DNA from: a virus
Lineage: Duplodnaviria > Heunggongvirae > Uroviricota > Caudoviricetes
Reading direction: 5' to 3' (one strand)
Length of the DNA: 23,612 nt
Virus record (IMG/VR): IMGVR_UViG_2648501338_000019
Below the pieces are notes generated by a model. It worked only from the letters and a program-made list of their open reading frames with translations, did no database searches and was not told where the DNA came from. A program made the translations under genes and the position numbers. Positions 1 through 23,612 of the stretch are shown piece after piece. The stretch's first letter is position 1, and each line of letters starts with the position of its first letter.

Positions 1-351
1 ATGCGAGAGACAGTCGAAATTATGCGTTATCCCGTCACTCTTACACCCGCGCCGGAAGGCGGTTATATGGTTTCTTTTGTGGATATCCCTGAAGCGTTGA
101 CCCAGGGCGAAACTGTCGCTGAAGCGATGGAAGCGGCAAAAGATGCTTTACTGACCGCATTTGATTTTTATTTTGAAGATAACGAGCTTATCCCGTTACC
201 TTCGCCATTAAATAGTCACGATCATTTTATTGAAGTACCTTTGAGCGTCGCCTCTAAGGTATTGCTGTTAAATGCTTTTTTACAGTCAGAAATCACTCAG
301 CAAGAGTTAGCCAGGCGAATTGGCAACCCGAATGTAGTCAACCCCAAATAA
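1..351 (+). CDS. hicB: HicB-family antitoxin, N-terminal (HicA-binding) domain only; C-terminal DNA-binding domain absent. Likely true start is the ATG at 22 (MRYPVTL...)
   Basis: Translation MRYPVTLTPAPEGGYMVSFVDIPEALTQGETVAEAMEAAKDALLTAFDFYFEDNELIPLPSPLNSHDHFIEVPLSVASKVLLLNAFLQSEITQQELARRIG matches my recollection of E. coli HicB nearly residue for residue; it then diverges (NPNVVNPK, stop) at about nt 322-330 where a full HicB would continue into its DNA-binding domain. Confidence 0.7.
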   Translation: MRETVEIMRYPVTLTPAPEGGYMVSFVDIPEALTQGETVAEAMEAAKDALLTAFDFYFEDNELIPLPSPLNSHDHFIEVPLSVASKVLLLNAFLQSEITQQELARRIGNPNVVNPK

Positions 352-2510: not shown

Positions 2511-2684
2511 ATGGATCTTTTTGTCTACTTTGCTACTCTGCTGTTTTTGACTATCGTCGCTGGCATTAAATTGATTTTTATATCGCTGGTGGTGTTTTTC
2601 AAATTTCTAATCGGTACGCCTTACGGCTGGGTATGCTTAATCCTGTTTATTCTTTTTAGTTGCTGTAAAAAGGATACTAAATAA
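2511..2684 (+). CDS. small membrane protein (57 aa), two predicted TM helices, lysine-rich C-terminus
   Basis: ATG preceded by AGAGGAT SD; product MDLFVYFATLLFLTIVAGIKLIFISLVVFFKFLIGTPYGWVCLILFILFSCCKKDTK. Confidence 0.4.
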   Translation: MDLFVYFATLLFLTIVAGIKLIFISLVVFFKFLIGTPYGWVCLILFILFSCCKKDTK

Positions 2685-2842
2685 TAGTGTAATCTGCCTT
2701 TTCTCCTTATGGTTATTAACAGGGGATCTTCTTTGAGGATTCCCGATTAAAAGCCATAAAACACACTCCAGTACAGTGTTTTCATAGTCAGTGATCTATA
2801 CAACACAAAAACATAACAAGTATAGATTGAGTATTAATCCTC

Positions 2843-2868
2843 CCGCCCTTCGGGGCGGTTATTTTTCT
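2843..2868 (+). terminator. rho-independent terminator (CCGCCC-TTCG-GGGCGG followed by TTATTTTT)
   Basis: Perfect G/C stem with a UUCG-type loop immediately followed by a T-run. Confidence 0.6.
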
Positions 2869-2942
2869 GGCTTTAAAGAATAATGTAGCATTATGTTCAT
2901 TATAACCTCATCTTTGTTGTGCAAACCTAACCTAAACTTACT

Positions 2943-2967
2943 AGGGACTCTTCGGAGTCCCTTTTTT
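2943..2967 (+). terminator. rho-independent terminator (GGGACTC-TTCG-GAGTCCC + T6); overlaps the stop codon of the convergent minus-strand gene
   Basis: 7-bp perfect stem, UUCG loop, six T residues; sits at the convergence point of plus and minus transcription units. Confidence 0.6.
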
Positions 2968-3208
2968 ATGCAACAATTCGAAGTGTAGGTTTCTTATGTT
3001 GTGTAGGTTTAGTTTCATTTCGCCACTCAGGAAACACCTGATCCATCATAACCGCATTAGTCTCATCAATCAGTTTTAAGGACTTTCTCAACGCCTTATT
3101 ATCAGCTTTAAGAGTTTTAATCTCTGATTCCATCGCTACCATTCTTTCTTTCATTTTGGTAATTTCTAACATCAGATTACCAAGAAATTCTTTGTTTTGA
3201 TTAATCAT
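2966..3208 (-). CDS. hypothetical coiled-coil protein (80 aa)
   Basis: ORF immediately downstream of the 347-aa gene on the minus strand; heptad-like ITKMKERMVAMESEIKTLKADNKALRKSLKL. Confidence 0.5.
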   Translation of the reverse strand: MINQNKEFLGNLMLEITKMKERMVAMESEIKTLKADNKALRKSLKLIDETNAVMMDQVFPEWRNETKPTQHKKPTLRIVA

Positions 3209-3223
3209 AGAATTACCTCTCTA

Positions 3224-4267
3224 TTAAGCTGCGTAGGCGTAGGCGTAGGCGTAGGCGTAGGCGTAGGCGTAGGCGTAGGCGTAGGCGCTGTAGTTGGTGT
3301 CATAGATAGCGTCATGCAGTGCCATCTGTGCTTCGCGGATCTCGTCTTCGTTTACTTCAATCTCTTCTTGTTCTTCTTCGGTATCTTCCCAAGTGGTTTT
3401 GAATTTAGCCATAAAGTTATTGCGCAGGGATTCAAAGTTAGTAACAGGTGCGGATTTTTCTTCAACCGGAACTACTACCGGATCAGCTTCTTTCTGTTCT
3501 TCCTGTCCTACTTTTTCACCGTTACCCCAGCGATAGTTAAGGAGTTCTTCCAGTTCTTCATCAATGGATTTTTCTTCAACTGCTTCAACTTCAACCGCTG
3601 CTACTTCGAAAGTGGTTTCCTGCGCTGCCAGTTCAGCTTTCAGAGATGCGTTTTCAGCTTCCAGTTCAGCAATGCGTGCTTTCAGTGCTTCAACTTCGGA
3701 AGATTCAACCACTGCAACTTCTTCTTTAACTTCTTCAACTACTACCGGAGCAACTTCTTTCTGTGCTTCTTTTTTGCAGAAGAAGGAGGAAGTAACCTGT
3801 AATGCGTGGTTGTAGAAGGAACCGCCTTTAGCGGTGTTAACAGTACCAGAAACATCCTTTACAGTGGATTCAGTAGCAACAGTACGGAAGCGTTTTGCAA
3901 CTTCCTGGGTCTCTACGCCGTATTCGTTACGCTTGCTCTTGTGATGCATTACAGCACGGAAGCCGGAAGCAGTTTTAATAACAGCGAGATAGTAAGTTTC
4001 ATCGGCTTTAACAGCACGAGCGAAGCAATAAACGGATTCACCTTCTACCAGTGTAGGTTTAACGTGACGTTTGTCGAAACGGTTAGTGATCTGCCATTCA
4101 GCACCGTCTTTGATGCCAGCATTCTGACGCATTTCGGTCAGAGTCTTACCGGATACTACTTCAAAGGATTTGTCTTGTTTGCTTGCTTTACCTTCCATAA
4201 CGGTAATGTTCAGTTTGCCGTTGGATTTGATGAATAGGTTGAAGGTGATGCGCTTAGAATTTTTCAT
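3224..4267 (-). CDS. hypothetical protein (347 aa): N-terminal globular domain, acidic linker, leucine-zipper-like coiled coil, acidic region and a C-terminal (Ala-Tyr)9 dipeptide repeat
   Basis: Good SD (AGGAG) 11 nt upstream of the ATG on the minus strand; sensible amino-acid composition, whereas the overlapping plus-strand ORF 3197-3802 is a Phe-rich low-complexity antisense artefact; coiled coil EALKARIAELEAENASLKAELAAQ. Confidence 0.6.
   Translation of the reverse strand: MKNSKRITFNLFIKSNGKLNITVMEGKASKQDKSFEVVSGKTLTEMRQNAGIKDGAEWQITNRFDKRHVKPTLVEGESVYCFARAVKADETYYLAVIKTASGFRAVMHHKSKRNEYGVETQEVAKRFRTVATESTVKDVSGTVNTAKGGSFYNHALQVTSSFFCKKEAQKEVAPVVVEEVKEEVAVVESSEVEALKARIAELEAENASLKAELAAQETTFEVAAVEVEAVEEKSIDEELEELLNYRWGNGEKVGQEEQKEADPVVVPVEEKSAPVTNFESLRNNFMAKFKTTWEDTEEEQEEIEVNEDEIREAQMALHDAIYDTNYSAYAYAYAYAYAYAYAYAYAA
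3231..3284. repeat. perfect hexanucleotide microsatellite (GCGTAG)9, which encodes (Ala-Tyr)9 at the 3' end of the minus-strand gene
   Basis: Nine uninterrupted GCGTAG units read directly from the sequence, followed by a degenerate unit GCGCTG. Confidence 0.95.
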
Positions 4268-4383
4268 TTATAAATACTCCTGAATGCTGTGTTAGTTTTA
4301 ATTGTTCATTTCAAGTCTCCTTTGCTGCAACAAGGGAGGCTTTTTATTTTTAAAGCCATCATATAATTCTCAGTGAAAGTGGA

Positions 4384-4563
4384 TTAACAAACTTGAACGT
4401 TAATCTTTACCTGAATTTCGTATTTCTTCATTAGCTTATAGAATCCGCTTCTATCAATCCCTTCCTTCTTAAAGAAGTTTTCCCCGCCTCGCTCAGTGTC
4501 GCTGTAAAACCGTTTAGCAATATCAACAATCATTTCACGAGTAAATTTAACAGGTCTAGCCAT
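4384..4563 (-). CDS. small HTH DNA-binding protein (59 aa from the ATG at 4563; the ORF track extends it to a GTG at 4578)
   Basis: MARPVKFTREMIVDIAKRFYSD...GIDRSGFYKLMKKYEI has a resolvase/transposase-type HTH signature; SD GAGGAA 9 nt upstream of the ATG at 4563. Confidence 0.5.
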   Translation of the reverse strand: MARPVKFTREMIVDIAKRFYSDTERGGENFFKKEGIDRSGFYKLMKKYEIQVKINVQVC

Positions 4564-4905
4564 AAATCGATTCCTCACATGTGGATTAATAATTCCTTAA
4601 AAAAGAGCTTTTCGCTCTGAACAATTCTATTTATAAAAATGATTTTCAAAAACTCTGTAAAACAACTGTATATCCGATCAGTGGGAGCACGAATTGCTAA
4701 AGAGAAGATTAATAATTAATCAATTCGTACAATATTCGACCGAAAAAGCACTGCATATCTAACCAGTGCTGTATGAATTAACAGTTAGTCAAGGGATTTT
4801 CAGAAGTGAACAATCATTTTTCATGCATTGTATTTATACACGAAAAATCATGCTTATCATCTATATGGGGATTGTTTGGAAAATTTCAACCCCTACCAAG
4901 GATAA

Positions 4906-4936
4906 AAAGTATAAAATAGTTCTTGACACATGTCAA
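4906..4936 (-). promoter_or_regulatory. candidate sigma70 promoter firing leftward (-35 TTGACA, 17-bp spacer, -10 TATACT); the -35 lies inside the inverted repeat TTGACA-CA-TGTCAA
   Basis: Hexamers and spacing read on the minus strand; the inverted repeat places a second TTGACA on the plus strand, which suggests an operator or divergent promoter. Confidence 0.4.
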
Positions 4937-4964
4937 CATTCATGATCTAAGCGAGAAAGGTGTA

Positions 4965-5133
4965 TCAAAATTTTTGTTTGAAAATGGCAAATAATGATTA
5001 TCAACCTTTTAAACCTTATATGGCACGGAGATCTTTTGAAAATTTCTTTTAAATCATGAATTTACATCTATTTTTGGTGGTTTTTTGGTTGAATAATATA
5101 CAAGAATTTTTTGTCAAAATTTTTGATTGAAAA
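4965..5133. repeat. AT-rich region with two copies of the 20-bp direct repeat TCAAAATTTTTG(T/A)TTGAAAA (4965-4984 and 5114-5133) and related A/T tracts
   Basis: Seen directly; lies immediately upstream of the iteron array. Confidence 0.5.
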
Positions 5134-5252
5134 CCTACACTACACACCTACCCTTTAAAGGGATTGGCCTACACTACACTAGCCAGTAAACCTACACTAT
5201 AACACCCTCAAACCTACACTATGAAACCTACACACCTACACTAACCCTACAC
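5134..5252 (+). repeat. iteron-like array: 7 perfect plus 1 variant copy of CCTACAC (4 as the 10-mer AAACCTACAC) in about 120 bp, three of them at 22-bp spacing
   Basis: Copies at 5134, 5169, 5191, 5213, 5227, 5235, 5246, with variant CCTACCC at 5147; counted directly. Confidence 0.8.
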
Positions 5253-5597
5253 TTCAATCACGTAAGTGTATGACCTTGAAAGGTATTATACCCCACAGAC
5301 CATAGAATATAAAATTCGAACTAACGTTCTCCTTTTTGCTCGCTTTCTCTCACTACGTTCAAGAAAGATCTCGCAAAAAGAATACGGCGTAGCCGTGCGC
5401 GTAGCGCCCACCAACACCTTCTAAGACCTGCAAGCAGGATTCGAAAGGGATTGATAGTTCGCTTCGCTCACGTTCACGCCTACGGCGTTCACTCACTTTT
5501 AAAAGGATTTTCTTAGAAAGGGATTTAATACTAGTTACTAACTGATTCTAGTAAACGAACGAAGTGAGTAACAATCAATTTCTAGAAAGGTATTGGT

Positions 5598-5626
5598 ATC
5601 CCTTCGGGATTGCAACCTTCGGTTGC
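5598..5626 (+). other. two adjacent UUCG-loop hairpins (ATCCC-TTCG-GGGAT and GCAACC-TTCG-GTTGC) in non-coding DNA; possible RNA 3' end or processing/stability element
   Basis: Perfect stems seen in sequence; no overlapping ORF; not followed by a clean T-run. Confidence 0.35.
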
Positions 5627-5867
5627 TAAATTGCTTCCTGATTATTATTTCTTCAAAAGAAAGATTCTTATATTCTAAAGATACTTCTTCGTTTTGATGA
5701 TGATTTAATCAAATCTATGAAGGGGGGCTTTAGCCCGACTGAATCCAATCATCTTTCAAGTACAGACCAGTTTTGGACTCTACCAGATCACTCTTTTCAT
5801 AATAACAAGAATTTTCTCTTTATAAATAATATTAGATTGATTCGCTTTCTTTTAGAGGATTTCCACT

Positions 5868-6335
5868 ATGAACCATAAAATGACTACCACTACTCCTTTC
5901 ATCCTGTTAGGTTTTGATGCTGATAGCTTCCACAATGACAAGTTAATGAAGATCTTTGTTGAACGTGGTTACAACATTCTTTTCAACTCTGATGAATCTC
6001 ATTTCTCTAGTGTATGGTATGCGTTTTGCCGTAATAAGAAGCCGACCATTGTTGTTAACGTCTTCACCGATGAAGGCCGCTTAAAGTACCAGAATATTCC
6101 AGCGATCATCGTTAGCGAATACCTTCCTTTCGAAGTCCGTTCCGGTGATGTTGATCTGGGTAGCTTCTTTACTCTTCAAGAACTGGATGAAGCAATGTTT
6201 AACTACGGCAAAGAAACCGCTCAGAAAGCACCAGAACGCGATGAAGAAGACGAAGATGATGATGACTACGCACCAATCGCTTTTTCTTCTCACGGTGGCT
6301 TCTACGGTTACGATGAAGGCTTAGATATGCTGTAA
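5868..6335 (+). CDS. hypothetical protein (155 aa) with a strongly acidic C-terminal segment (ERDEEDEDDDDY)
   Basis: ATG preceded by AGAGGAT SD; no family recognised from sequence. Confidence 0.55.
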   Translation: MNHKMTTTTPFILLGFDADSFHNDKLMKIFVERGYNILFNSDESHFSSVWYAFCRNKKPTIVVNVFTDEGRLKYQNIPAIIVSEYLPFEVRSGDVDLGSFFTLQELDEAMFNYGKETAQKAPERDEEDEDDDDYAPIAFSSHGGFYGYDEGLDML

Positions 6336-6457
6336 GTTAGGTCAACCCTTTGGCATCTTGTCAAGGGGTATTGGCAAAATTTTCAGACTTTTTTATGATT
6401 ATCGCACTTGACAACTTTGAACTGATTTGACCTAGGTTTGTAAAGAGGATGTGAACT

Positions 6458-7492: not shown

Positions 7493-7500
7493 TAATTTTT

Positions 7501-7527
7501 GCCCCTGAATTTCAGGGGCTTTTTTGT
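7501..7527 (+). terminator. rho-independent terminator (GCCCCTGAA-T-TTCAGGGGC + T7)
   Basis: 9-bp perfect stem followed directly by TTTTTTG. Confidence 0.75.
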
Positions 7528-7574: not shown

Positions 7575-7805
7575 TCAATTTCCTGTTGCTTCTACCATTT
7601 CACCGTCAACCTGAACAAAGAATTTCAAATCAACTTTATGTAGGGATTTGTATAGCTGGGCTATAGATAAGCCATGCTCATTTAATACCCGTTCTTTGTT
7701 CTCTTTACCTTTCGGTGCTTGATAGTACGCTTTTACAATCTCTGCCAGTTGTTCACGATTAAAACGGGCAGGACGACCGCGAGTAGCTTTAGTAGTCATA
7801 GTCAT
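7575..7805 (-). CDS. small HTH DNA-binding protein (76 aa; an alternative ATG at 7799 has better SD spacing); paralog of the 4384-4563 product
   Basis: TRGRPARFNREQLAEIVKAYY...GLSIAQLYKSL shares the R-P-x-x-F-x-R-E...I-x-K-x-Y-Y pattern with the 59-aa protein; the only early-region gene with a TGA stop. Confidence 0.5.
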   Translation of the reverse strand: MTMTTKATRGRPARFNREQLAEIVKAYYQAPKGKENKERVLNEHGLSIAQLYKSLHKVDLKFFVQVDGEMVEATGN

Positions 7806-7833: not shown

Positions 7834-8439
7834 TTATTTAGAGGACTTACATTTTATCGGAAAAAGTTCTCCATCGTCAACTGACATAAAAAACTCTGCC
7901 TTAATCCCGTACTTCTTCAACCGTGAATAGTATGTACCCCGACTTATATCAACCTTGCGCAGCACTTCGAAGAACTCTTTAGGATTCCTGTAATAATGGC
8001 TATATCGCACGTTAGCGAGTTCTACAAACAATTCCCTTGTATCACCATAGCCTTTCTTGAAAGCCACGTTACGATAGCGTGTAATGGCATGATTCAATCT
8101 CTTCTGTTTAAGCACTTCCCTGATCGGCTTCCACTGCAACCGATAGATTGGACCGTCATCCACTCGATAATAACGCTTGATATCAAAATCAAACCATTCA
8201 CGGACTCGCTGAAACTCTGTCTGTGATGTTCGGTGCTTCTTAAAGAAGTTATGGATATCTGTATACCCATGATCGCGATACAACTCGATTAAAATTTGCT
8301 TCGCTTCTTCGCGACTAAAACCGGATGTAGTGTAATCAGTCTTCTTGTGATGGTGCTTAACTGGCAAACGATATTCATGATCGGTACAACAAGACAAGGC
8401 TAATTCTAATTCATCTCTTTCTTGCTGATTAATTAGCAT
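7834..8439 (-). CDS. hypothetical protein (201 aa) whose C-terminus carries the same HTH motif (DISRGTYYSRLKKYGI)
   Basis: ORF with the HTH motif shared with the two small HTH proteins; transcribed divergently from the large terminase gene. Confidence 0.5.
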   Translation of the reverse strand: MLINQQERDELELALSCCTDHEYRLPVKHHHKKTDYTTSGFSREEAKQILIELYRDHGYTDIHNFFKKHRTSQTEFQRVREWFDFDIKRYYRVDDGPIYRLQWKPIREVLKQKRLNHAITRYRNVAFKKGYGDTRELFVELANVRYSHYYRNPKEFFEVLRKVDISRGTYYSRLKKYGIKAEFFMSVDDGELFPIKCKSSK

Positions 8440-15469: not shown

Positions 15470-16303
15470 ATGAATATTACACAAGATAACTTAGATATTT
15501 TCACTGGATCACATGTTGAAGTGTCGATCTCTAACCAGATAGACAATCAGGTCGACTTTTTCGATCCTAGCTTTAGTTCTATGGAGAACATCGCAGCATT
15601 CCCTACGCTAACCGAATCCACAGAGATAGAAACTCTGGAAGAGTACGATCAGGACGCTACGGGGAAACTTGCTGGTTATCGTAGACTGGAACCGACAACA
15701 CTCACATTAAACCGTGTTCTTGACGATGAACATCAAGCAATGTTGATGAAAGCGGTAGAGGATAAAACACCTTTACGCTTCCGTATGTTCTATGTTGTGA
15801 ACTCTGGCTATAGTGCTGCTAACACAGGGTACTTTTGTATATTCGATGCTTACGTCACATCACATAAAACCCGTGGTAGTGATAACAAAGCTGTAACACT
15901 GGAATTTAAACTTGAACCAGATGGCGGGATTTTGGCAAGGGGTATTGCTACCGAAGGCCGGATCTTACGTCAGGGTGATTTTGGTTTGGGTGCTGGTGTA
16001 AATCCATTCACGGGTCCGATTGACAGCGAGGCATTAGCCGGAAACCGTTTCGTAACTTACAAGGGAACTGCTAGCGGTAATCCATATTCAACCGACACAG
16101 CATTAATTCACCTTCAAGCTAATGAGCATGGCGCATGGCAATTAACCTGTAATACTTCTGGCGCACCGCGTTTACGTGTCCGAAATATTCAGGAAAACGG
16201 TCGTTCTGAATGGATCAAGGTATATTCCACCAATGAGAAACCGACACCTAGCGAAATTGGCGCAGTGGCTAAGACTGACCGGATCGATTTCGGCGAATAC
16301 TAA
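15470..16303 (+). CDS. hypothetical structural protein (277 aa), candidate collar or fibre-anchoring protein; C-terminus shares the KPTPxE(I/L)G motif with the fibre
   Basis: Located between neck genes and the fibre gene; C-terminal NEKPTPSEIGAVAKTD parallels GDKPTPTELGVYSKAEVD and KKPTPEQLSQGEIA in the fibre. Confidence 0.5.
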   Translation: MNITQDNLDIFTGSHVEVSISNQIDNQVDFFDPSFSSMENIAAFPTLTESTEIETLEEYDQDATGKLAGYRRLEPTTLTLNRVLDDEHQAMLMKAVEDKTPLRFRMFYVVNSGYSAANTGYFCIFDAYVTSHKTRGSDNKAVTLEFKLEPDGGILARGIATEGRILRQGDFGLGAGVNPFTGPIDSEALAGNRFVTYKGTASGNPYSTDTALIHLQANEHGAWQLTCNTSGAPRLRVRNIQENGRSEWIKVYSTNEKPTPSEIGAVAKTDRIDFGEY

Positions 16304-16335
16304 GGATTCTCCTACCTAAATAAAACATGAACGTT

Positions 16336-16368
16336 GGGAGGTTAACGCCTCCCTTATTCCTGTTTTAT
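16336..16368 (+). terminator. stem-loop GGGAGG-TTAACG-CCTCCC followed by a T-rich tract; candidate terminator/attenuator before the fibre gene
   Basis: Perfect 6-bp stem; the downstream TTATTCCTGTTTTA is only moderately U-rich. Confidence 0.4.
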
Positions 16369-16384
16369 AGTGAGGTGATTCTAG

Positions 16385-19300
16385 ATGCAATCAATCCAAT
16401 TTAAACGCACACAGACGGCGGGTAAAAAACCAACGCCGGAACAATTATCACAGGGTGAAATCGCCTTACAGTTGGCGGATCATGTGATTTACACCAAAGA
16501 CAAAAATAATAACGTAGTCCAAATTAGTGTTTCTCCAGAAAAACACGCTGAACTGAATACGAAAGTAGACAATAACAAAACTAGCACTGACCGTGTTATT
16601 GCTTCCAACAAACAAGAAGCCGCTAATAATCTGGCTAGTGCTAAAGCTGAACTGAATCAGACTATCACTTCTACCCGTGATGCTCTCAATGCTTCAATCA
16701 CTGCTGGCGACACCGCAGCCAACAAACGAATTGATGCTTTGACTACCACAGTAGGTAACAATAAAACCGAAGCGGCTAACGCTCTGGCGGCTGCTAAGAC
16801 TGAACTGAATCAGACTATTACTTCAACCCGCGATACTATCAACGCAACAATTAACAAGAACAAGACAGATATTAATGCACGAGTTGATCAGACTAATACC
16901 AACGTTACTAACTTAACGAATACTGTCTCAGCAAATAAATCAGCCATAGAAACGACCGTAGCAAATAATAAACGCGATGCCGACACGAAGATCACCAATC
17001 TTACGGGGACAGTTAATAGCAACCATACAGCAATTAACAACAAGGTAGACCAGAATAAATCTTCTACTGATGCCGCAATTGCCGCAGCTAACCAGCGAAT
17101 TGATTCTATTGAAGGTAGTGCCGATGCTGCTTACATCAAGAAGAATACCAACACTTACCATCACGGCTATCTGTTAACCAAAACAGCTAACTATTTTGAT
17201 GATGCTGGTGCTCGTAACCTTGATTATTTTGGTGCATTCCGTCCAAACAATGCCGAAGGTTGGGGTAACTTAATCCTTAACATTCCTCATTCTGGCGGTA
17301 AAGCACACGGTCGCGGTTTTGAGTTCCACTATGGGTCTAGCTCATCTCAAGTTAAAACCTATGGCTTTGATAAAGATGGTAATAAGCGATTCAGCTACCG
17401 CATGTATCACGAAGGTGATAAGCCGACTCCGACTGAATTGGGTGTGTATAGTAAAGCCGAAGTTGATCAGATGTTCATCAAGAACGTTAGAATGACCGTT
17501 CCTTCTGGTGATGCTACTCGTGGATACTTCAAGATCGCAACCGCTACGATCCCACAGAATGGTCGAATGGTAATGCTTCGTATCTTCGGTGGTAATGGTT
17601 ATAACGTTAACTCTTATGATCAGGTTGACTTTGTAGAAATTGTCATCCGTTCCGGTAACAATAACCCGAAAGGCGTTAGTATTGCTGCTTATCGTCGAAA
17701 TGCTCTGAACGTTCATCAAGTATTTGCGGTTAATACTTCCGGTGATAACTACGATATCTACGTTAACTACGGTCGTTACACCGATAACGTTATTGTCGAA
17801 TACGGTAAAACTGATGGCGTTACTCTGACAGTACATGATGTTCCTGAATTAACTCTCGTTAAACCTTCTGTTGGTGTTACCGATGCTCGTGTTATTACGA
17901 TGTTCAACACCGAAAACAAAGCCGGAACGTTGATGTTTGATAATAACTCACAAGCAACCTATGATATTGTGAGCCTTAATAACGTACCAGACAACAATAA
18001 AAAATATATGCGTAAATTCCGCAGTCGTGCGGCGGAAACAATATGGCATGAAACTGTTCAAGGTGATGTGTATCGTTTGGCTACTGGTTCCACCGACCAA
18101 AAAGAAGTATTAAAAATTGTTGGTAGTGATGGTTTATTTGTCGATAGACTTCATCTGCAAGGCAATAACGCGATTCGTATGTGGCGTCCTACTGGTCGTA
18201 GTAACTATTTTGAATATATGGATCAGCGAGACGGGGCTAATAAACGTCAAGGCTGGTTTGGTTTTGGTTCTACAGATACTAACGATTTTCAATGGTATAG
18301 TGACGAAGGTAAAAACTTTGTTAAATTAGAAGCAAGTGGTCAAGTATCTTTAAGCACAGGTGCTACCAAAATTGTATACACCAATGGTCAATATGTAGCT
18401 GCTAACAGTGATGCATTCCGTATGATTTACGGTAACTATGGTGCATTCTGGCGTAATGATGGTCAAAACGTATATCTTCTGTCTACTGCCGAAAATGATA
18501 AATTTGGTGGTTGGAACGGCTATCGTCCATTCATTTACAATCTGGGTAGCGGTAATGTTACTTTGGGTGGTGATGGTAACGAAGGTGCATTAGTCTTAGA
18601 ACGTGCAAGTCGTGCTGCTCGTTTTGCTGGAAACACATACATTAAAGGCCAATATTTAACATTTGATGCTGGTGCTGGACAATCCCGCGACTATTTCCGT
18701 TTGAGTCATTGGGGCGATAGCAATAACGCTCGTGATAACGTTATACAGCTTGAAGATAGTAAAGGTGCTCACTTCACCACTGAACGTACTTTAGCAACTG
18801 GTGCGATTAAAACTAAATTCTTCGGTGATTTGGAATCTGCTGGTCTGATTCGCTGGGGTAAGGGTACAGCTACTTCTAGTTTCAATATTCGTGCATGGGG
18901 CGCTGATGCTCGTAAACAAGTATTTGAATGTGCTGATGAAAGCGGTTGGCATTGGTATACCCAACGTCCGGGCGGTCCGGGTACTACGGCAATTGAGTTT
19001 GCCATCAACGGTACTGTTAAGCCTCAAGCAATTCACACTGGCGGTAATATCACGCTTAACGGTGCTGATATTGAATTTAAGCGCACTGGTAATAAGCATT
19101 TGTGGTTTAGAGATCCGAATGGCTTAGAACTAGGTTTGATGTATTCCGATGATGCTGGTGTTATTCGCTTCCGTGGTCAGAAACAAGCCCAGACGTGGAA
19201 ACTTGCGGATAAGATGATCCAGTTGGAATCTGGTACTGTAACCGGTGGCGGTAATGGCCTGATTCGTGGTGAAGTTGCTGGCGGTAGTTGGGCTAGCTGG

Positions 19301-19885
19301 CGTGACCGTGCTGCTGGTCTTATGGTTGGGTGTCCTCAATCCACCAACTCGGCACATAACGTATGGAAAGCGACGCATTGGGGTAAATATCACATTGCAG
19401 CAATGGGTGTGCACGTTCCTGACGGTACTATCGGTAACGCTCTTGTTCGTCTCCATGTTCATGATACTAACTTTGACTTTAACGCTGCTGGTGACTTTAC
19501 CGCAGGTCGTAACGGTTCGTTTAACGATGTTTACATTCGCTCTGACTCCCGTTTGAAGATTAACAAGGAAGAATTACAGGACGGCGCATTAGAGAAAGTA
19601 AACTCACTGAAAGTCTACACCTACGATAAAGTTAAATCTCTTAAAGACCGTAGTGTGATTAAACGCGAAGTAGGTATTATTGCTCAGGATCTGGAAGAAG
19701 TATTGCCGGAAGCAGTAGGTATTCAATCCACCGAAGATCCAGAAAATCCAGAAGCAATCAAGACTATTTCTAACTCTGCTGTCAATGCTTTAATCATCAA
19801 AGCTATGCAGGAAATGGACGCCAAATATAAAGCCCAGATCGAAGCATTACAGAAAGAAATTGCCGAACTGAAAGCAACTAAATAA
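16385..19885 (+). CDS. long fibre protein (1166 aa) with a tandemly duplicated N-terminal rod segment and a C-terminal intramolecular chaperone (peptidase S74-like) domain
   Basis: C-terminus RSDSRLKINKEEL...VYTYDKVK...GIIAQDLEEVLPEAV matches the autoproteolytic chaperone domain of phage fibres and tailspikes; N/T/S-rich beta-type sequence in the middle. Confidence 0.85.
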   Translation: MQSIQFKRTQTAGKKPTPEQLSQGEIALQLADHVIYTKDKNNNVVQISVSPEKHAELNTKVDNNKTSTDRVIASNKQEAANNLASAKAELNQTITSTRDALNASITAGDTAANKRIDALTTTVGNNKTEAANALAAAKTELNQTITSTRDTINATINKNKTDINARVDQTNTNVTNLTNTVSANKSAIETTVANNKRDADTKITNLTGTVNSNHTAINNKVDQNKSSTDAAIAAANQRIDSIEGSADAAYIKKNTNTYHHGYLLTKTANYFDDAGARNLDYFGAFRPNNAEGWGNLILNIPHSGGKAHGRGFEFHYGSSSSQVKTYGFDKDGNKRFSYRMYHEGDKPTPTELGVYSKAEVDQMFIKNVRMTVPSGDATRGYFKIATATIPQNGRMVMLRIFGGNGYNVNSYDQVDFVEIVIRSGNNNPKGVSIAAYRRNALNVHQVFAVNTSGDNYDIYVNYGRYTDNVIVEYGKTDGVTLTVHDVPELTLVKPSVGVTDARVITMFNTENKAGTLMFDNNSQATYDIVSLNNVPDNNKKYMRKFRSRAAETIWHETVQGDVYRLATGSTDQKEVLKIVGSDGLFVDRLHLQGNNAIRMWRPTGRSNYFEYMDQRDGANKRQGWFGFGSTDTNDFQWYSDEGKNFVKLEASGQVSLSTGATKIVYTNGQYVAANSDAFRMIYGNYGAFWRNDGQNVYLLSTAENDKFGGWNGYRPFIYNLGSGNVTLGGDGNEGALVLERASRAARFAGNTYIKGQYLTFDAGAGQSRDYFRLSHWGDSNNARDNVIQLEDSKGAHFTTERTLATGAIKTKFFGDLESAGLIRWGKGTATSSFNIRAWGADARKQVFECADESGWHWYTQRPGGPGTTAIEFAINGTVKPQAIHTGGNITLNGADIEFKRTGNKHLWFRDPNGLELGLMYSDDAGVIRFRGQKQAQTWKLADKMIQLESGTVTGGGNGLIRGEVAGGSWASWRDRAAGLMVGCPQSTNSAHNVWKATHWGKYHIAAMGVHVPDGTIGNALVRLHVHDTNFDFNAAGDFTAGRNGSFNDVYIRSDSRLKINKEELQDGALEKVNSLKVYTYDKVKSLKDRSVIKREVGIIAQDLEEVLPEAVGIQSTEDPENPEAIKTISNSAVNALIIKAMQEMDAKYKAQIEALQKEIAELKATK

Positions 19886-19941
19886 TAAAAGTCGGGGGAC
19901 TAGTTCCCCCGTAATAACAATTTTAATTAAGGGGTAATTCT

Positions 19942-20415
19942 ATGTCTCAGCAATTCAAAGATATTTTTACTGGTGGTCTGGTAAGTCTGTTCTATCACGC
20001 GGACACCACTAATACCGCTCTCGACCACGAAAGCTACGAAGAAATTAAAGAGTGTGCTGGTTTTCCTGAAACTGGTATCGAGCGCGGTACTGTAGAAGTT
20101 AAATCCTTCTCTTCTCAGTATAACCGTAAACTGGTAGGGAAGCTGAACGTTCCTGATCTGACTCTGACCGTTAACTACATCCCAGGCGATGCGGTACATG
20201 AAAAACTGATCAAAGCTGCCGAAGACGGTACTCGTATTCAGATTAAAGTAGAATATTACGTTGACGCAGCAAAACAGACTGGTATTCGCACCGCTTTCAA
20301 CGGCTTCATTTCTAAAGTTGCTATGAACGGTGGCGATGAAGAAGTTGTAACCAAAGAGTTTACCTTCGCGGTGGATGGTGCTCCGCTGAAACAGCAAATC
20401 TTCACTGCCGGATGA
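19942..20415 (+). CDS. major tail (tube) protein (157 aa); TGA stop
   Basis: Size, composition and position immediately upstream of the chaperone and tape-measure genes; conserved TTAAGGGGTAAT initiation motif. Confidence 0.7.
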   Translation: MSQQFKDIFTGGLVSLFYHADTTNTALDHESYEEIKECAGFPETGIERGTVEVKSFSSQYNRKLVGKLNVPDLTLTVNYIPGDAVHEKLIKAAEDGTRIQIKVEYYVDAAKQTGIRTAFNGFISKVAMNGGDEEVVTKEFTFAVDGAPLKQQIFTAG

Positions 20416-20535
20416 ACTAACGAAGAACTTCCCGAACCGGAACCACAGCCGGAACATGAAGCGGTGGTGATTCCAGAAGTAGAAGAAGTTACGGCGAAAG
20501 CCACAGCTAAACGAAGCCGCAAGGCTAAAGATTAA
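20416..20535 (+). CDS. in-frame 39-codon extension after the major tail gene TGA (TNEELPEPEPQPEHEAVVIPEVEEVTAKATAKRSRKAKD, then TAA); candidate readthrough product
   Basis: Frame checked codon by codon; shares the opening TGA ACT AAC G and the closing VTAKAT-x-K...RK-x-K motif with the capsid extension. Confidence 0.4.
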   Translation, partial: TNEELPEPEPQPEHEAVVIPEVEEVTAKATAKRSRKAKD

Positions 20536-20540
20536 TTATA

Positions 20541-20570
20541 AGCCCTGCCTTAATGGTGGGGCTTTTTTAT
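20541..20570 (+). terminator. rho-independent terminator (AGCCCTGCC-TTAAT-GGTGGGGCT + T6), homolog of the one at 14707
   Basis: Same stem sequence as the capsid terminator; loop differs by one inserted base. Confidence 0.8.
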
Positions 20571-20583
20571 TGGAGTAATCAAA

Positions 20584-21090
20584 ATGGCGAATGTCGTTAA
20601 TAAGCCTGGCTGGGTCGGGTCATCTGCTGTTTCTGTAACTGGTCAACGATGGATGAGCGCAGCAATGAACGCATTAAAGGTTAGTCGCCCAGCTAACATG
20701 AGTGCGATGTGTGGTCGTGGTATGGATACGGTTGTAGCTACTGCTGCGTGGTCTACTTCATTGGGTAATAACTGGGGTGTAACTGCTTCAAACTATCCAG
20801 TAACTGACATGCGCGGTAAAGGATCTATGGAGAACCCCGAAAACGTGGGCGTAGGGCGTCTGATTGGCGTTATCGTTGGTCAATTCAATGGCGGTACTCC
20901 TACTATGGCTGTATATCTCCAGAACGGTAGAGCGGGGAATATAACCGTTAATTTGGGTGGTGCTGCTGTCACTGTTCCTTATAACAGTATGCAAAGCGGT
21001 TTTCATTACTATTGGTTAAGCAATCCTCCGGCTGCTTTACTCAATAACATTAAGAAGACTGGCACTAAGCAGACTTTGAAAATCTCTTAA
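20584..21090 (+). CDS. hypothetical protein (168 aa), G/S/T/N-rich beta-type; likely minor structural protein or moron between the tail tube and chaperone genes
   Basis: ORF with SD GGAG; no family recognised. Confidence 0.45.
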   Translation: MANVVNKPGWVGSSAVSVTGQRWMSAAMNALKVSRPANMSAMCGRGMDTVVATAAWSTSLGNNWGVTASNYPVTDMRGKGSMENPENVGVGRLIGVIVGQFNGGTPTMAVYLQNGRAGNITVNLGGAAVTVPYNSMQSGFHYYWLSNPPAALLNNIKKTGTKQTLKIS

Positions 21091-21830: not shown

Positions 21831-23612
21831 ATGACAAGACATATAGTAACAATAGAAGGAGATAATGACGGTCTAAGGAGAAGTACCAATCAGGCGATAG
21901 AGATGCTTGATAACCTTTCAGAAAGGGCAATGAATCTTGATTTGTCTGGTGGTTTATCTAGTTTAAGTGGAACCCTTCGCGGAACTGGTGGATCGCTTGC
22001 TTTGGCTGCTGGTGGTTTTGTTGGTTTGGCTGCTGGCGCTATTTCTGCTGCAAATGCCATCGGTGATTATGTAAAGGAATACAGCGAAGTTTCAAAAGCA
22101 ACTGGTTTAACCGTCGAAACACTCCAGAAATTAGAGAAGCAATTCTCCGGTACTGGCTTAACCGTTGAGAAATTTGGTGATATTAACAAAGACACCTTAG
22201 ATAAGCTGGCTGATGCATGGCGTAACGGTGGCGGTATTGAAGACGACCTAGAAAGTGTAGGTTTGAAGATTAAAGATTATGCCGAGTTTATGAACGATCC
22301 ACAAGGCGGGATGAAAGCGGCGATCAAGGTCTTCTATGATATGCGCAAGGCTGGTGCGTCTATCGCTGATGTTAAGTTTATGATGGAATCGTTAGCCAGT
22401 GATTCAAGTCATATGGCTGATGAATTGCAGAAATACGGATCTTATCAGGAAGCTGTAAACGCCATTAATCAGCAAACTGTTAAAATCACCAATGACACAG
22501 CCGAAGAATATAATAAATTCTCTAAAAATATGGATACCCTTACCGATAACTTAAAGGGTATGGCTGCAAATGCACTAAATCCAGTTGTTGAAGGGATGAA
22601 TAATCTTTACAACTGGTTTGATAAAGATTGGGAAAAGACCGCTTTATTCAACGCATTAAAGACTTTTAATGAAAGGTTTGAAAAAGCTCGCCAGAATATG
22701 GCTATGGCTAACGGTGGTTTTATTAACAAGCATGGTTATAGTTCTACTGGTCTAGCGGGTGGACAAGCCAGCTTCAACAATAAACCAAATTATCCTGATC
22801 GTTGGGTGGATAGTGAAGGCGTTACCCGTGATAAAAACGGTGATCCGGTAATTACTATCACTGGAAATAAATCGGATACCGGATTTACCCCAACGGGTCA
22901 AGGTGGAGGCGTCACCGGACCATCGAAAAAAGAACAAGAAGAAGCCAAGAAGAAAGCGGAAGAGGCAGCTAAAAAGGCTAAGGAAGCCGCAGAAAAAGCA
23001 CAGAAAGCACGCGAGGATGCAATCAAGCGACTGAATGCTCTTGATGTTAAATTGCAAGGACAGACAGCCGCGTCTATTGCTTCTCAAAACAAGCAGTTAG
23101 AAGCCAGCTTGAAAGATTTAGACACTGCTTTAGATATGGGCTTAATCTCTCAGCAAGACGCAGCCGCTAAACGTCAGCAACTGTTAGATCAGAACGCAGA
23201 AAACATCTATAAAATGATGTTGGGTGCTGATCCGATTGATGCTCTGAATGCCTTAACAGTTTTGCAACAAATCAGGGACAACGAGCTAGAAAGCCATAAA
23301 CGGTTACTTGATGGTAAAGCTATCTCCTACGAAGAATATATGCGTCGTGTGAATGATACCGAGCAAAACTATTCTCAGATTGATAGTCAGTTACAGGGAA
23401 TGGATGGTTTTAAAACCAATCAATTGACTAATAGCTTAGACTATCAGGATTCAAATAACCCGTTTGCTAAATTTAATGCAATCGATCAAGAGAAATCGGA
23501 AGCTGAACAAGATTATGTGAACCGCCCCGGGTTTCCTGGAGAGTGTTTTATCTGTGAACTCAGGCTGCCAGATCATCGTTTCCGATGGAAGCATAATAAG
23601 CTTTTTCTGCTT
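21831..23612 (+). CDS. tail tape measure protein, 5' portion (open to the end of the window)
   Basis: Open frame of 594 codons with no stop; N-terminal glycine/alanine-rich hydrophobic segment (GGSLALAAGGFVGLAAGAISAANAIG) and a lysine/glutamate-rich coiled coil (KKEQEEAKKKAEEAAKKAKEAAEKAQKARE); canonical position after G/GT. Confidence 0.75.
   Translation, partial: MTRHIVTIEGDNDGLRRSTNQAIEMLDNLSERAMNLDLSGGLSSLSGTLRGTGGSLALAAGGFVGLAAGAISAANAIGDYVKEYSEVSKATGLTVETLQKLEKQFSGTGLTVEKFGDINKDTLDKLADAWRNGGGIEDDLESVGLKIKDYAEFMNDPQGGMKAAIKVFYDMRKAGASIADVKFMMESLASDSSHMADELQKYGSYQEAVNAINQQTVKITNDTAEEYNKFSKNMDTLTDNLKGMAANALNPVVEGMNNLYNWFDKDWEKTALFNALKTFNERFEKARQNMAMANGGFINKHGYSSTGLAGGQASFNNKPNYPDRWVDSEGVTRDKNGDPVITITGNKSDTGFTPTGQGGGVTGPSKKEQEEAKKKAEEAAKKAKEAAEKAQKAREDAIKRLNALDVKLQGQTAASIASQNKQLEASLKDLDTALDMGLISQQDAAAKRQQLLDQNAENIYKMMLGADPIDALNALTVLQQIRDNELESHKRLLDGKAISYEEYMRRVNDTEQNYSQIDSQLQGMDGFKTNQLTNSLDYQDSNNPFAKFNAIDQEKSEAEQDYVNRPGFPGECFICELRLPDHRFRWKHNKLFLL

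Follow-up and report, generated by a model that had tools for sequence, protein, structure and literature searches.

IMG/VR record IMGVR_UViG_2648501338_000019, a stretch of 23,612 nucleotides from a tailed virus (Caudoviricetes) that is termed the window in the following, carries an intergenic array of direct repeats. The 10-mer of this array, AAACCTACAC, was found in three additional exact copies on the opposite strand, all within the coding sequences of the neighboring leftward operon, which encodes proteins of 64, 347, and 80 amino acids (aa). The copies match the repeat through a non-random choice of codons, they are inherited together with the array cassette, and the type of repeat changes between related prophages along with the N-terminal domain (N-domain) of the 347-aa protein. 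We consider it an evenly balanced proposition that the three copies are recent, dispensable, and lineage-specific auxiliary binding sites for the 347-aa protein, which would act by looping or by titrating the protein. Binding, looping, and a regulatory effect are what we infer from the sequences.

The window was found to contain eight exact copies of the 10-mer. Those in the array are on the plus strand (5131, 5188, 5210, and 5224), and those outside it are on the minus strand (2983-2992, 3001-3010, 4051-4060, and 22255-22264). By mononucleotide composition 0.055 copies are expected per window, and none was found in 100 dinucleotide-preserving shuffles. The 7-mer core CCTACAC is present outside the array only at the four 10-mer sites, compared to approximately 2.2 expected by composition; the AAA extension is complete at all four, and no copy of the core alone was found elsewhere. 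An earlier note on this DNA, made from the letters of the window alone, had counted three 10-mers outside the array and judged them very unlikely to occur by chance. All three were recovered as exact matches where it had placed them, with 2983 and 3001 in the last 15 codons of the 80-aa open reading frame and 4051 in codons 70-72 of the 347-aa open reading frame; the fourth, at 22255, had been overlooked. The judgment on chance is borne out both by the counts above and by the recoding described below.

The three operon copies are all read in one frame, as AAA-CCT-ACA-C, and encode Lys-Pro-Thr (KPT). AAA accounts for 67% of the Lys codons of the phage, CCT for 25% of the Pro codons, and ACA for 19% of the Thr codons, and the chance of the 10-mer spelling is about 0.03 per KPT. 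The other four KPT tripeptides in the window are all spelled with different codons. We kept the operon proteins fixed and redrew their codons from the phage's own usage in 3000 trials. No copy of the 10-mer resulted in 2801 trials, one copy in 192, and two copies in 7 (two or more in 0.2%), while three or more copies were obtained in none. The match of the operon copies is therefore non-random at the DNA level. The tripeptide itself was also found more often than expected: seven KPT are present in the 6282 aa of the window proteome compared to about one expected, and three of these are in the 491 aa of the leftward operon compared to roughly 0.08 expected from composition. Copies 1 and 2 (2983 and 3001) lie 18 bp apart in the 80-aa gene, and the sequence common to both is exactly the 10-mer and nothing beyond. 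The stop codon is 15 bp away from copy 1, which lies 14 bp within the left boundary of the exchangeable segment termed cassette A below. The segment holding copy 2 is rearranged relative to the related locus L034 (..EWRTPKQEKPTLRLVG).

Related loci were grouped by their arrays. Type 1 comprises the window together with L001-L012, L018-L029, and L039-L045, all with CCTACAC arrays. A TTTTGCCCCTGAAA array occupies the same position in L013, L014, L016, L017, L032, and L033, and L030 represents yet another type. When the window was compared by blastn to L017, L013, and L032, two segments, cassettes A and B, were found to lack homology (Table 1). Cassette A holds all three genic copies, cassette B holds the array, and about 860 bp of conserved DNA separates them. 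The two cassettes are always co-inherited; they are swapped together among prophages that are otherwise 80-96% identical, and at least five specificity types were found.

The 347-aa protein is modular, with a type-specific N-domain of approximately 165-170 aa (nt 3758-4267) followed by a coiled coil and an acidic linker and by a conserved C-terminal tail. In modular alignments the N-domains of different types were found to be unrelated or highly diverged, whereas the coiled-coil/acidic middle and the C-terminal tail are shared. Similarity of the N-domain tracks the repeat. The N-domain of L034 is 78% identical and its repeat has the same core, CCTACAC; the N-domain of L035 is 46% identical and its repeat CCTGCAC (CCCTGCACTAA) is a one-base variant of the type-1 core; type 2 combines an unrelated N-domain with an unrelated repeat, TTGCCCCTGAA; and in L015 a composite array goes with two large proteins in tandem. 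Among the proteins of the operon region, only the N-domain of the 347-aa protein was found to co-vary with the repeat over five array types. The leftward operon therefore very probably encodes the repeat-binding factor, in agreement with what the earlier note had suggested, and judged by this co-variation the 347-aa protein is the probable factor.

Other proteins of the region were rejected as the repeat-binding factor. For the 64-aa and the 50-aa protein, the two types share the same accessions (WP_021515494.1, the 64-aa protein, occurs in L001 and L003 of type 1 and in L014 of type 2), the 155-aa protein does not track the array type, and the TerS-like protein keeps an identity of 98% between types. 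A centromere or partition array (parC / tubC-type) was rejected as well, since neither the window nor the complete prophages L002 and L017 were found to contain a gene for a ParA/ParM/TubZ NTPase.

Comparison of the 347-aa protein to Pfam, PHROG, and PDB sequences gave nothing meaningful, and the protein matched no recognised Rep initiator family (Rep_3/RepA/pi/TrfA, RctB). A phmmer search with the N-domain against 1.8 billion representatives gave 7 matches, all of them family members or noise, and a profile search with the 347-aa family recovered only unannotated proteins from Escherichia, Shigella, and Salmonella. AlphaFold2 (AF2) models reached a predicted local distance difference test score (pLDDT) of 44 from the single sequence and 38 from a 14-sequence alignment. 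A helix at residues 190-217, with a pLDDT of about 70-78, was the sole modestly confident part and is consistent with a coiled coil. Relatives are named 'coiled-coil domain-containing' or 'bZIP' in RefSeq, and the 80-aa protein gave weak bZIP/YabA-like coiled-coil matches below the cut-off.

Several further features of these proteins were observed. Nine tandem GCGTAG hexamers at 3231-3284 encode a (YA)9 C-terminal tail, so that the 347-aa protein ends in (YA)9-A. The number of units ranges from 2 to about 9 among relatives, whose proteins are 328-347 aa long, and the length of the tail therefore varies by repeat slippage. Many members of the family end in -AA, -VA, or -VG, endings that would resemble C-terminal degron-like tails. 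In the third-type element L015 (701-2749 and 3600-3955), one of the large proteins ends in ..RPTLRLVA like the tail of the 80-aa protein, and the composite array consists of TCCCCG-type repeats and a series of ACC-rich repeats spaced at a period of 8 bp. The 64-aa protein (4384-4578), a 76-aa protein (7575-7805), and the C-terminus of a 201-aa protein (7834-8439), all encoded on the minus strand, are paralogue-like and share the pattern ..RP.KF.RE....I...Y........F......G.....Y.L.KK..I......V..; judged by this pattern they may form a small DNA-binding family, which had no Pfam match.

Four of the seven cores in the array are full 10-mers, and an additional degenerate CCTACCC is located at 5147. 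The cores are direct repeats with spacings of 34, 23, 22, 14, 8, and 11 bp, roughly in helical phase; the spacings in the type-2 array are 63, 22, 43, 21, and 34 bp. Arrays of unrelated repeats are found at the same position in other types. The flank to the left of the array has a GC content of 35%. DnaA boxes were not enriched in the window (7 matches compared to 6.5 expected), and one of them (4580-4588) is near the region. The array could be either an operator or an origin of the prophage. To its right, two adjacent small hairpins with TTCG loops were recognised by eye in conserved DNA (5575-5640, within a wider region of 5290-5640). The stem of the second varies among relatives without any loss of pairing (GCAACC/GGTTGC, GCCCC/GGGGC, GCAGC/GCTGC), a pattern suggestive of a structured element, RNA or DNA, ahead of the 155-aa gene. 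RNAalifold misaligned the second stem and gave no support for the double hairpin, and Rfam had no match to it.

The reading we favor could work as follows. The 10-mer would be the recognition sequence of the 347-aa N-domain, and the phased intergenic array at 5131-5252 would be its main target. In one recent Escherichia coli allele of the cassette, the recognition sequence would also have been written into coding DNA of the operon, at 4051 and 2983 through the choice of synonymous codons for two ancestral Lys-Pro-Thr peptides and at 3001 by a small rearrangement that made a third KPT. Protein bound to the array and oligomerised by its coiled coil could bridge to the genic sites in a U-shaped loop, and in such a loop the inverted orientation would place the genic sites alongside the array with matching polarity. 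Looping or a roadblock would then let the protein exert negative feedback on the operon that encodes it, and/or the protein would be titrated. The array sits about 200-340 bp upstream of the best leftward promoter match, and the genic sites are about 0.85 and 1.9 kb downstream of it. Autoregulation or looping by the genic copies is plausible and could apply to one lineage only. Because the sites are missing from close relatives and one of them is polymorphic, any effect would have to be dispensable or newly gained.

Within type 1, the equivalent of 4051 was present in 32 of 32 loci and that of 3001 in 29 of 29, the latter in the 80-aa gene where just 23% of the 10-mers are invariant. This conservation over about 30 loci carries little weight, because the E. 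coli type-1 cassette is effectively one allele. The single allele is one of the observations that weigh against the favored reading. All type-1 N-domains found in 5.8 billion proteins, IMG/VR, and metagenomes are 93-100% identical, with 98-99% identity wherever the N-domain of the E. coli type-1 allele was recovered, only 23 of 495 columns are variable in the N-domain DNA, and 66% of the 10-mers around 4051 are invariant. Further independent type-1 lineages were not found in scans of genome contigs, and metagenomes gave only copies of 98-99% identity; a viral scan with the 155-aa profile gave just 3 loci because its patterns were of low complexity. The equivalent of 2983 was intact in only 12 of 29 type-1 loci, with CCT changed to CTT in 16 and to CAT in one. 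Both changes are non-synonymous and affect a core base that is invariant in the array; this site is already in decay.

The comparison to more distant relatives points the same way. L034 has the same CCTACAC array and not a single genic core, and it keeps the KPT peptides in other codons: VKPTM of the N-domain is encoded by GTA AAA CCA ACC ATG and EKPTLRLVG of the tail by GAA AAA CCC ACT TTA, the sites being spelled AAACCAACCA and AAACCCACTT. In L035, the N-domain position holds no KPT, and a genic copy is lacking too. The operon of type-2 elements is free of their own repeat, which in L017 is confined to the array. Judged by these relatives, the genic sites are neither a feature of the family nor a conserved design. 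The C-terminal tail of the small protein, (P)TLR[IL]V[AGS], is kept across types at the protein level, and its codons are AAA CCT ACC CTG in Salmonella L036 (assembly GCA_019699565.1; 9/10 matches to the 10-mer) and AGA CCT ACC CTT in L015 (8/10). Site 2983 therefore lay a single synonymous change from the ancestral codons. Finally, an exact 10-mer can occur unlinked to the array, as seen for the copy in the tape-measure gene. A tape-measure allele that is 97% identical and has the same 10-mer was found in type-2 L017, which is without a CCTACAC array, and type-1 L002 has a different tape-measure allele without the 10-mer; the 22255 copy is not coupled to the array type. The suggestion of the earlier note that the binding factor also contacts the operon that may encode it therefore stands in part. 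The copies are non-random and the likely binder is encoded there, but contact with the operon is not supported as a general design, since L034, L035, and type 2 lack such copies and 2983 is destroyed in 17 of 29 loci.

The same observations can be explained by copies that arose without any function. Ancestral KPT codons (VKPT; KPTLR[IL]V) would have drifted to the repeat spelling in one allele that then spread, the third copy may have arisen by local micro-duplication or indel beside the second, and the protein may bind incidentally with nothing depending on it. KPT peptides without the DNA motif in L034, nearly matching tail codons in L036 and L015, the loss of 2983 from most loci by non-synonymous changes, the single low-diversity allele, the unlinked copy in the tape-measure gene, and the lack of operon copies in other array types would all be expected under this explanation. 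It fits poorly with the improbable codon coincidence (about 0.03 per KPT, and at least three copies in none of the recodings) and with the over-representation of KPT in the operon. The pair that is 18 bp apart and identical over exactly the 10-mer is likewise a poor fit to an old, randomly diverged tandem duplication, and all copies have one orientation. We regard this explanation as quite possible and take it seriously, while leaning away from it.

An explanation at the RNA level was also weighed. The operon mRNA, with three copies of AAACCUACAC, could pair with RNA from the array (up to seven GUGUAGG(UUU)) in cis or in trans and thereby modulate translation or stability. The inverted orientation does make an array-antisense RNA and the operon mRNA complementary, and the second promoter-like site in Table 1, on the minus strand just right of the array, could supply a transcript. 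But a protein domain changes along with the repeat type, which speaks for recognition by protein, and the main mRNA would exclude the array because the best leftward promoter match is to the left of it. Genic copies are lacking in L034, L035, and type 2, ten-nucleotide duplexes 1-2 kb apart would be weak, and Rfam had no match. We give this explanation very little credence. The same low standing applies to a role in DNA transactions, with the copies as polar replication-fork barriers or as markers or hot spots for the exchange of specificity cassettes: the sites are asymmetric and point in one direction, and copies 1 and 2 lie 14-32 bp inside the left boundary of cassette A at 2970, but no such site is present at the right edge of cassette A (4268) or at either edge of cassette B, the same cassettes are exchanged in other types that have no copies in the operon, and no associated recombinase or Tus-like function was found with Pfam. 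Dispersed asymmetric operators of the P1 C1 type, which are numerous over the genome and mostly located at promoters, were rejected, since the complete type-1 prophage L002 has just two 10-mers outside the array, both in cassette A, and L017 has no copy of its own repeat there.

The favored reading, of auxiliary sites for the 347-aa protein, has counterparts in known systems, and the genic copies belong to a known class, that of auxiliary recognition sites near or inside the gene of their own binder, here in an uncharacterised protein family. P1 incA and mini-F incC are auxiliary iterons outside the minimal origin, near the gene of the binding protein; they work through titration of the protein, through handcuffing or looping, and through autorepression of the promoter. 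The auxiliary RctB sites of Vibrio cholerae (ori2-inc iterons and 29/39-mers) work in the same ways (PMC6090056). The E. coli type-1 allele resembles these three systems in having a primary array of direct repeats and extra copies of the recognition sequence near the gene of the putative binder. It differs in that the extra copies are single 10-mers in coding sequence rather than intergenic clusters and that they are lacking in the closest relatives. The 347-aa protein is in no known initiator family, and no clear signature of a DNA unwinding element (DUE) or of DnaA boxes was found in the window. Classical iterons are 17-22 bp long, whereas the array units have a core of 7-10 bp.

Auxiliary operators within coding regions are also known from lac O2 in lacZ and gal OI in galE, where they cooperate by DNA looping. 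The likeness consists in an exact copy of the recognition sequence in coding DNA of the putatively regulated unit, hundreds of bp to kb away; a binder made oligomeric by the predicted coiled coil could bridge the sites. The primary site is here an array of 7-8 copies located 200-340 bp upstream of the predicted promoter and not a single promoter operator, and the auxiliary sites are lineage-specific, not being retained in L034 despite the common CCTACAC array.

In phage lambda the whole iteron cluster, which is the origin, lies inside the O gene. The present system shares with lambdoid O and ori a modular protein whose type-specific N-domain co-varies with the repeats and whose C-terminal part is conserved, the swapping of cassettes, and a recognition sequence within the protein's own gene. 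It differs from lambda O in that the cluster is intergenic, with just one copy in the 347-aa gene; the 347-aa protein is not similar to O in sequence, and a partner of the P, DnaB-loader, or DnaC-like kind was not recognised. The DNA-binding domain of the repressor co-varies with the operators in lambdoid immunity regions, which are matched here by sharp-edged specificity cassettes between divergent transcription units and by several heterotypic variants in one host species. No helix-turn-helix (HTH) repressor fold was recognised here, however, and the repeats are direct and phased and not palindromic operators. It is tempting to view the swappable pair of a putative DNA-binding domain and a phased array as a replicon or immunity determinant in which selection embedded a site by synonymous codons, resulting in autogenous feedback at the DNA level; we consider this rather doubtful.

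The window represents the left ~23.5 kb of an approximately 35 kb siphovirus-type prophage inserted in the hicB gene of E. coli, with a large serine recombinase at the far end in the complete relatives L002 and L017. The region 2600-6400 was carried by 63 of 5426 complete E. coli genomes (about 1%), and the hosts of the lineage are E. coli, Shigella, and Salmonella. Megablast of this region against phages and plasmids gave zero matches, as did tblastn of the 347-aa protein against phages, and the best phage match of TerL was only 44% identical. A literature search on the hicB prophage gave nothing relevant. No replication or repressor gene was recognisable with Pfam and PHROGs across the prophage (the window and complete relatives), and Rfam and tRNA scans of the window gave no matches. 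The genome closest to the window was L001 (strain C325), with an identity of 99.7-99.9%. Its prophage is truncated by an IS3-family element within the capsid-protease gene (L001 31600-32813), and the window therefore represents a different, more complete copy.

Table 1. Coordinates of the repeat copies, cassettes, genes, and signals in and around the leftward operon.
Feature	Position	Strand	Remarks
Genic copy 1	2983..2992	-	K-P-T-(L); 80-aa protein, conserved C-terminal tail ...KKPTLRIVA
Genic copy 2	3001..3010	-	T-K-P-T-Q; 80-aa protein, short segment rearranged relative to L034
Genic copy 3	4051..4060	-	Codons 70-72 (K-P-T) and first base of Leu73; type-specific N-domain of the 347-aa protein
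Tape-measure copy	22255..22264	-	Inside the tape-measure gene (+ strand), read as ..E-S-V-G-L-K..
Primary array	5131..5252	+	7 CCTACAC cores at 5134, 5168, 5191, 5213, 5227, 5235, 5246
Cassette A	2970..4268		No homology to type 2 (blastn of the window to L017, L013, L032); exactly the 80-aa and 347-aa genes
Cassette B	5128..5492		Same blastn; array and about 240 bp to its right
hicB, 5' part	1-351		Open reading frame
LprI-like gene		-	Left of the TerS-like gene
TerS-like gene		+	Between the LprI-like gene and the convergent terminator
Convergent terminator	2943-2962		Between the TerS-like gene and the leftward operon
80-aa gene	2966-3208	-	Last in the leftward operon; coiled-coil protein; carries genic copies 1 and 2
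347-aa gene	3224-4267	-	Leftward operon; carries genic copy 3
64-aa gene (annotated as 59-aa)	4384-4578	-	First in the leftward operon; kept across array types
Intergenic region with array			1.3 kb, right of the 64-aa gene
Rightward operon		+	155-aa, 50-aa, Rha, then terminase and structural genes
Sigma-70-like promoter, best match	4936-4908	-	TTGACA-17-TATACT, 11/12; consensus scan only; reads into the 64-aa/347-aa/80-aa operon
Second promoter-like site	5313-5285	-	TTTATA-17-TATAAT, just right of the array

Additional sequence features were observed near the predicted signals. The best leftward promoter match overlaps a palindrome, TTGACACATGTCAA at 4921-4940, which presents the -35 hexamer TTGACA in both directions and is kept in type-2 loci. 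A leader of ~300 nt extends from this predicted promoter to the 64-aa gene and contains a terminator-like hairpin on the minus strand at 4604-4618 (AGAGCGAAAAGCTCT, then a T-run). The hairpin is kept across types and could act as an attenuator. In L034, two inverted CCTACAC cores with GTATTTATAA between them (AACCTACACTAGTATTTATAACGCGTTGTGTAGGG) were found at 5402-5434 of that locus, about 330 bp away from the array. This pair looks operator-like and is lacking in the E. coli type-1 elements.

Right after Rha, at 7494-7526, the window has an intrinsic terminator, ATTTTTGCCCCTGAA-TTTCAGGGGC-TTTTTT, whose 5' half is identical to 15 nt of the type-2 array repeat. The core of the type-2 repeat is thus present as an inverted pair in a type-1 window, and the same terminator was found in 12 loci of both types, mostly type 1. 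Type-2 repeats may derive from this terminator, or the terminator may be a binding site across types. Together with the 22255 copy, it indicates that repeat-like sequences also occur without functional pairing with the resident array. Further to the right, a 1166-aa gene with best matches to long-tail-fibre distal-subunit families and a gene matching a tail-fibre-adhesin family (20584-21090) were found within 15470-21090; the tail-fibre genes sit between two genes that both match a major-tail-protein family (15470-16303 and 19942-20415), an unusual mosaic arrangement. The last ~96 bp of the window (23517-23612) match no relative, all whole-window alignments ending at 23516, and the tape-measure gene is probably broken there by a mobile element or some other junction.

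If the genic copies are bound, they would represent a natural regulatory site made in coding sequence purely by synonymous codon choice. L034 keeps the state before the codon change, and the CTT and CAT variants of 2983 would serve as natural knock-outs. If they are not bound, they would instead be a caution that exact extra repeats can come from peptide motifs that are conserved and from one allele spreading. The cassette-type co-variation of a putative DNA-binding domain with its array is the more interesting by-product. As the determinant of array specificity, the N-domain of the 347-aa protein would provide the first functional handle on a prophage family without recognisable replication or repressor genes.

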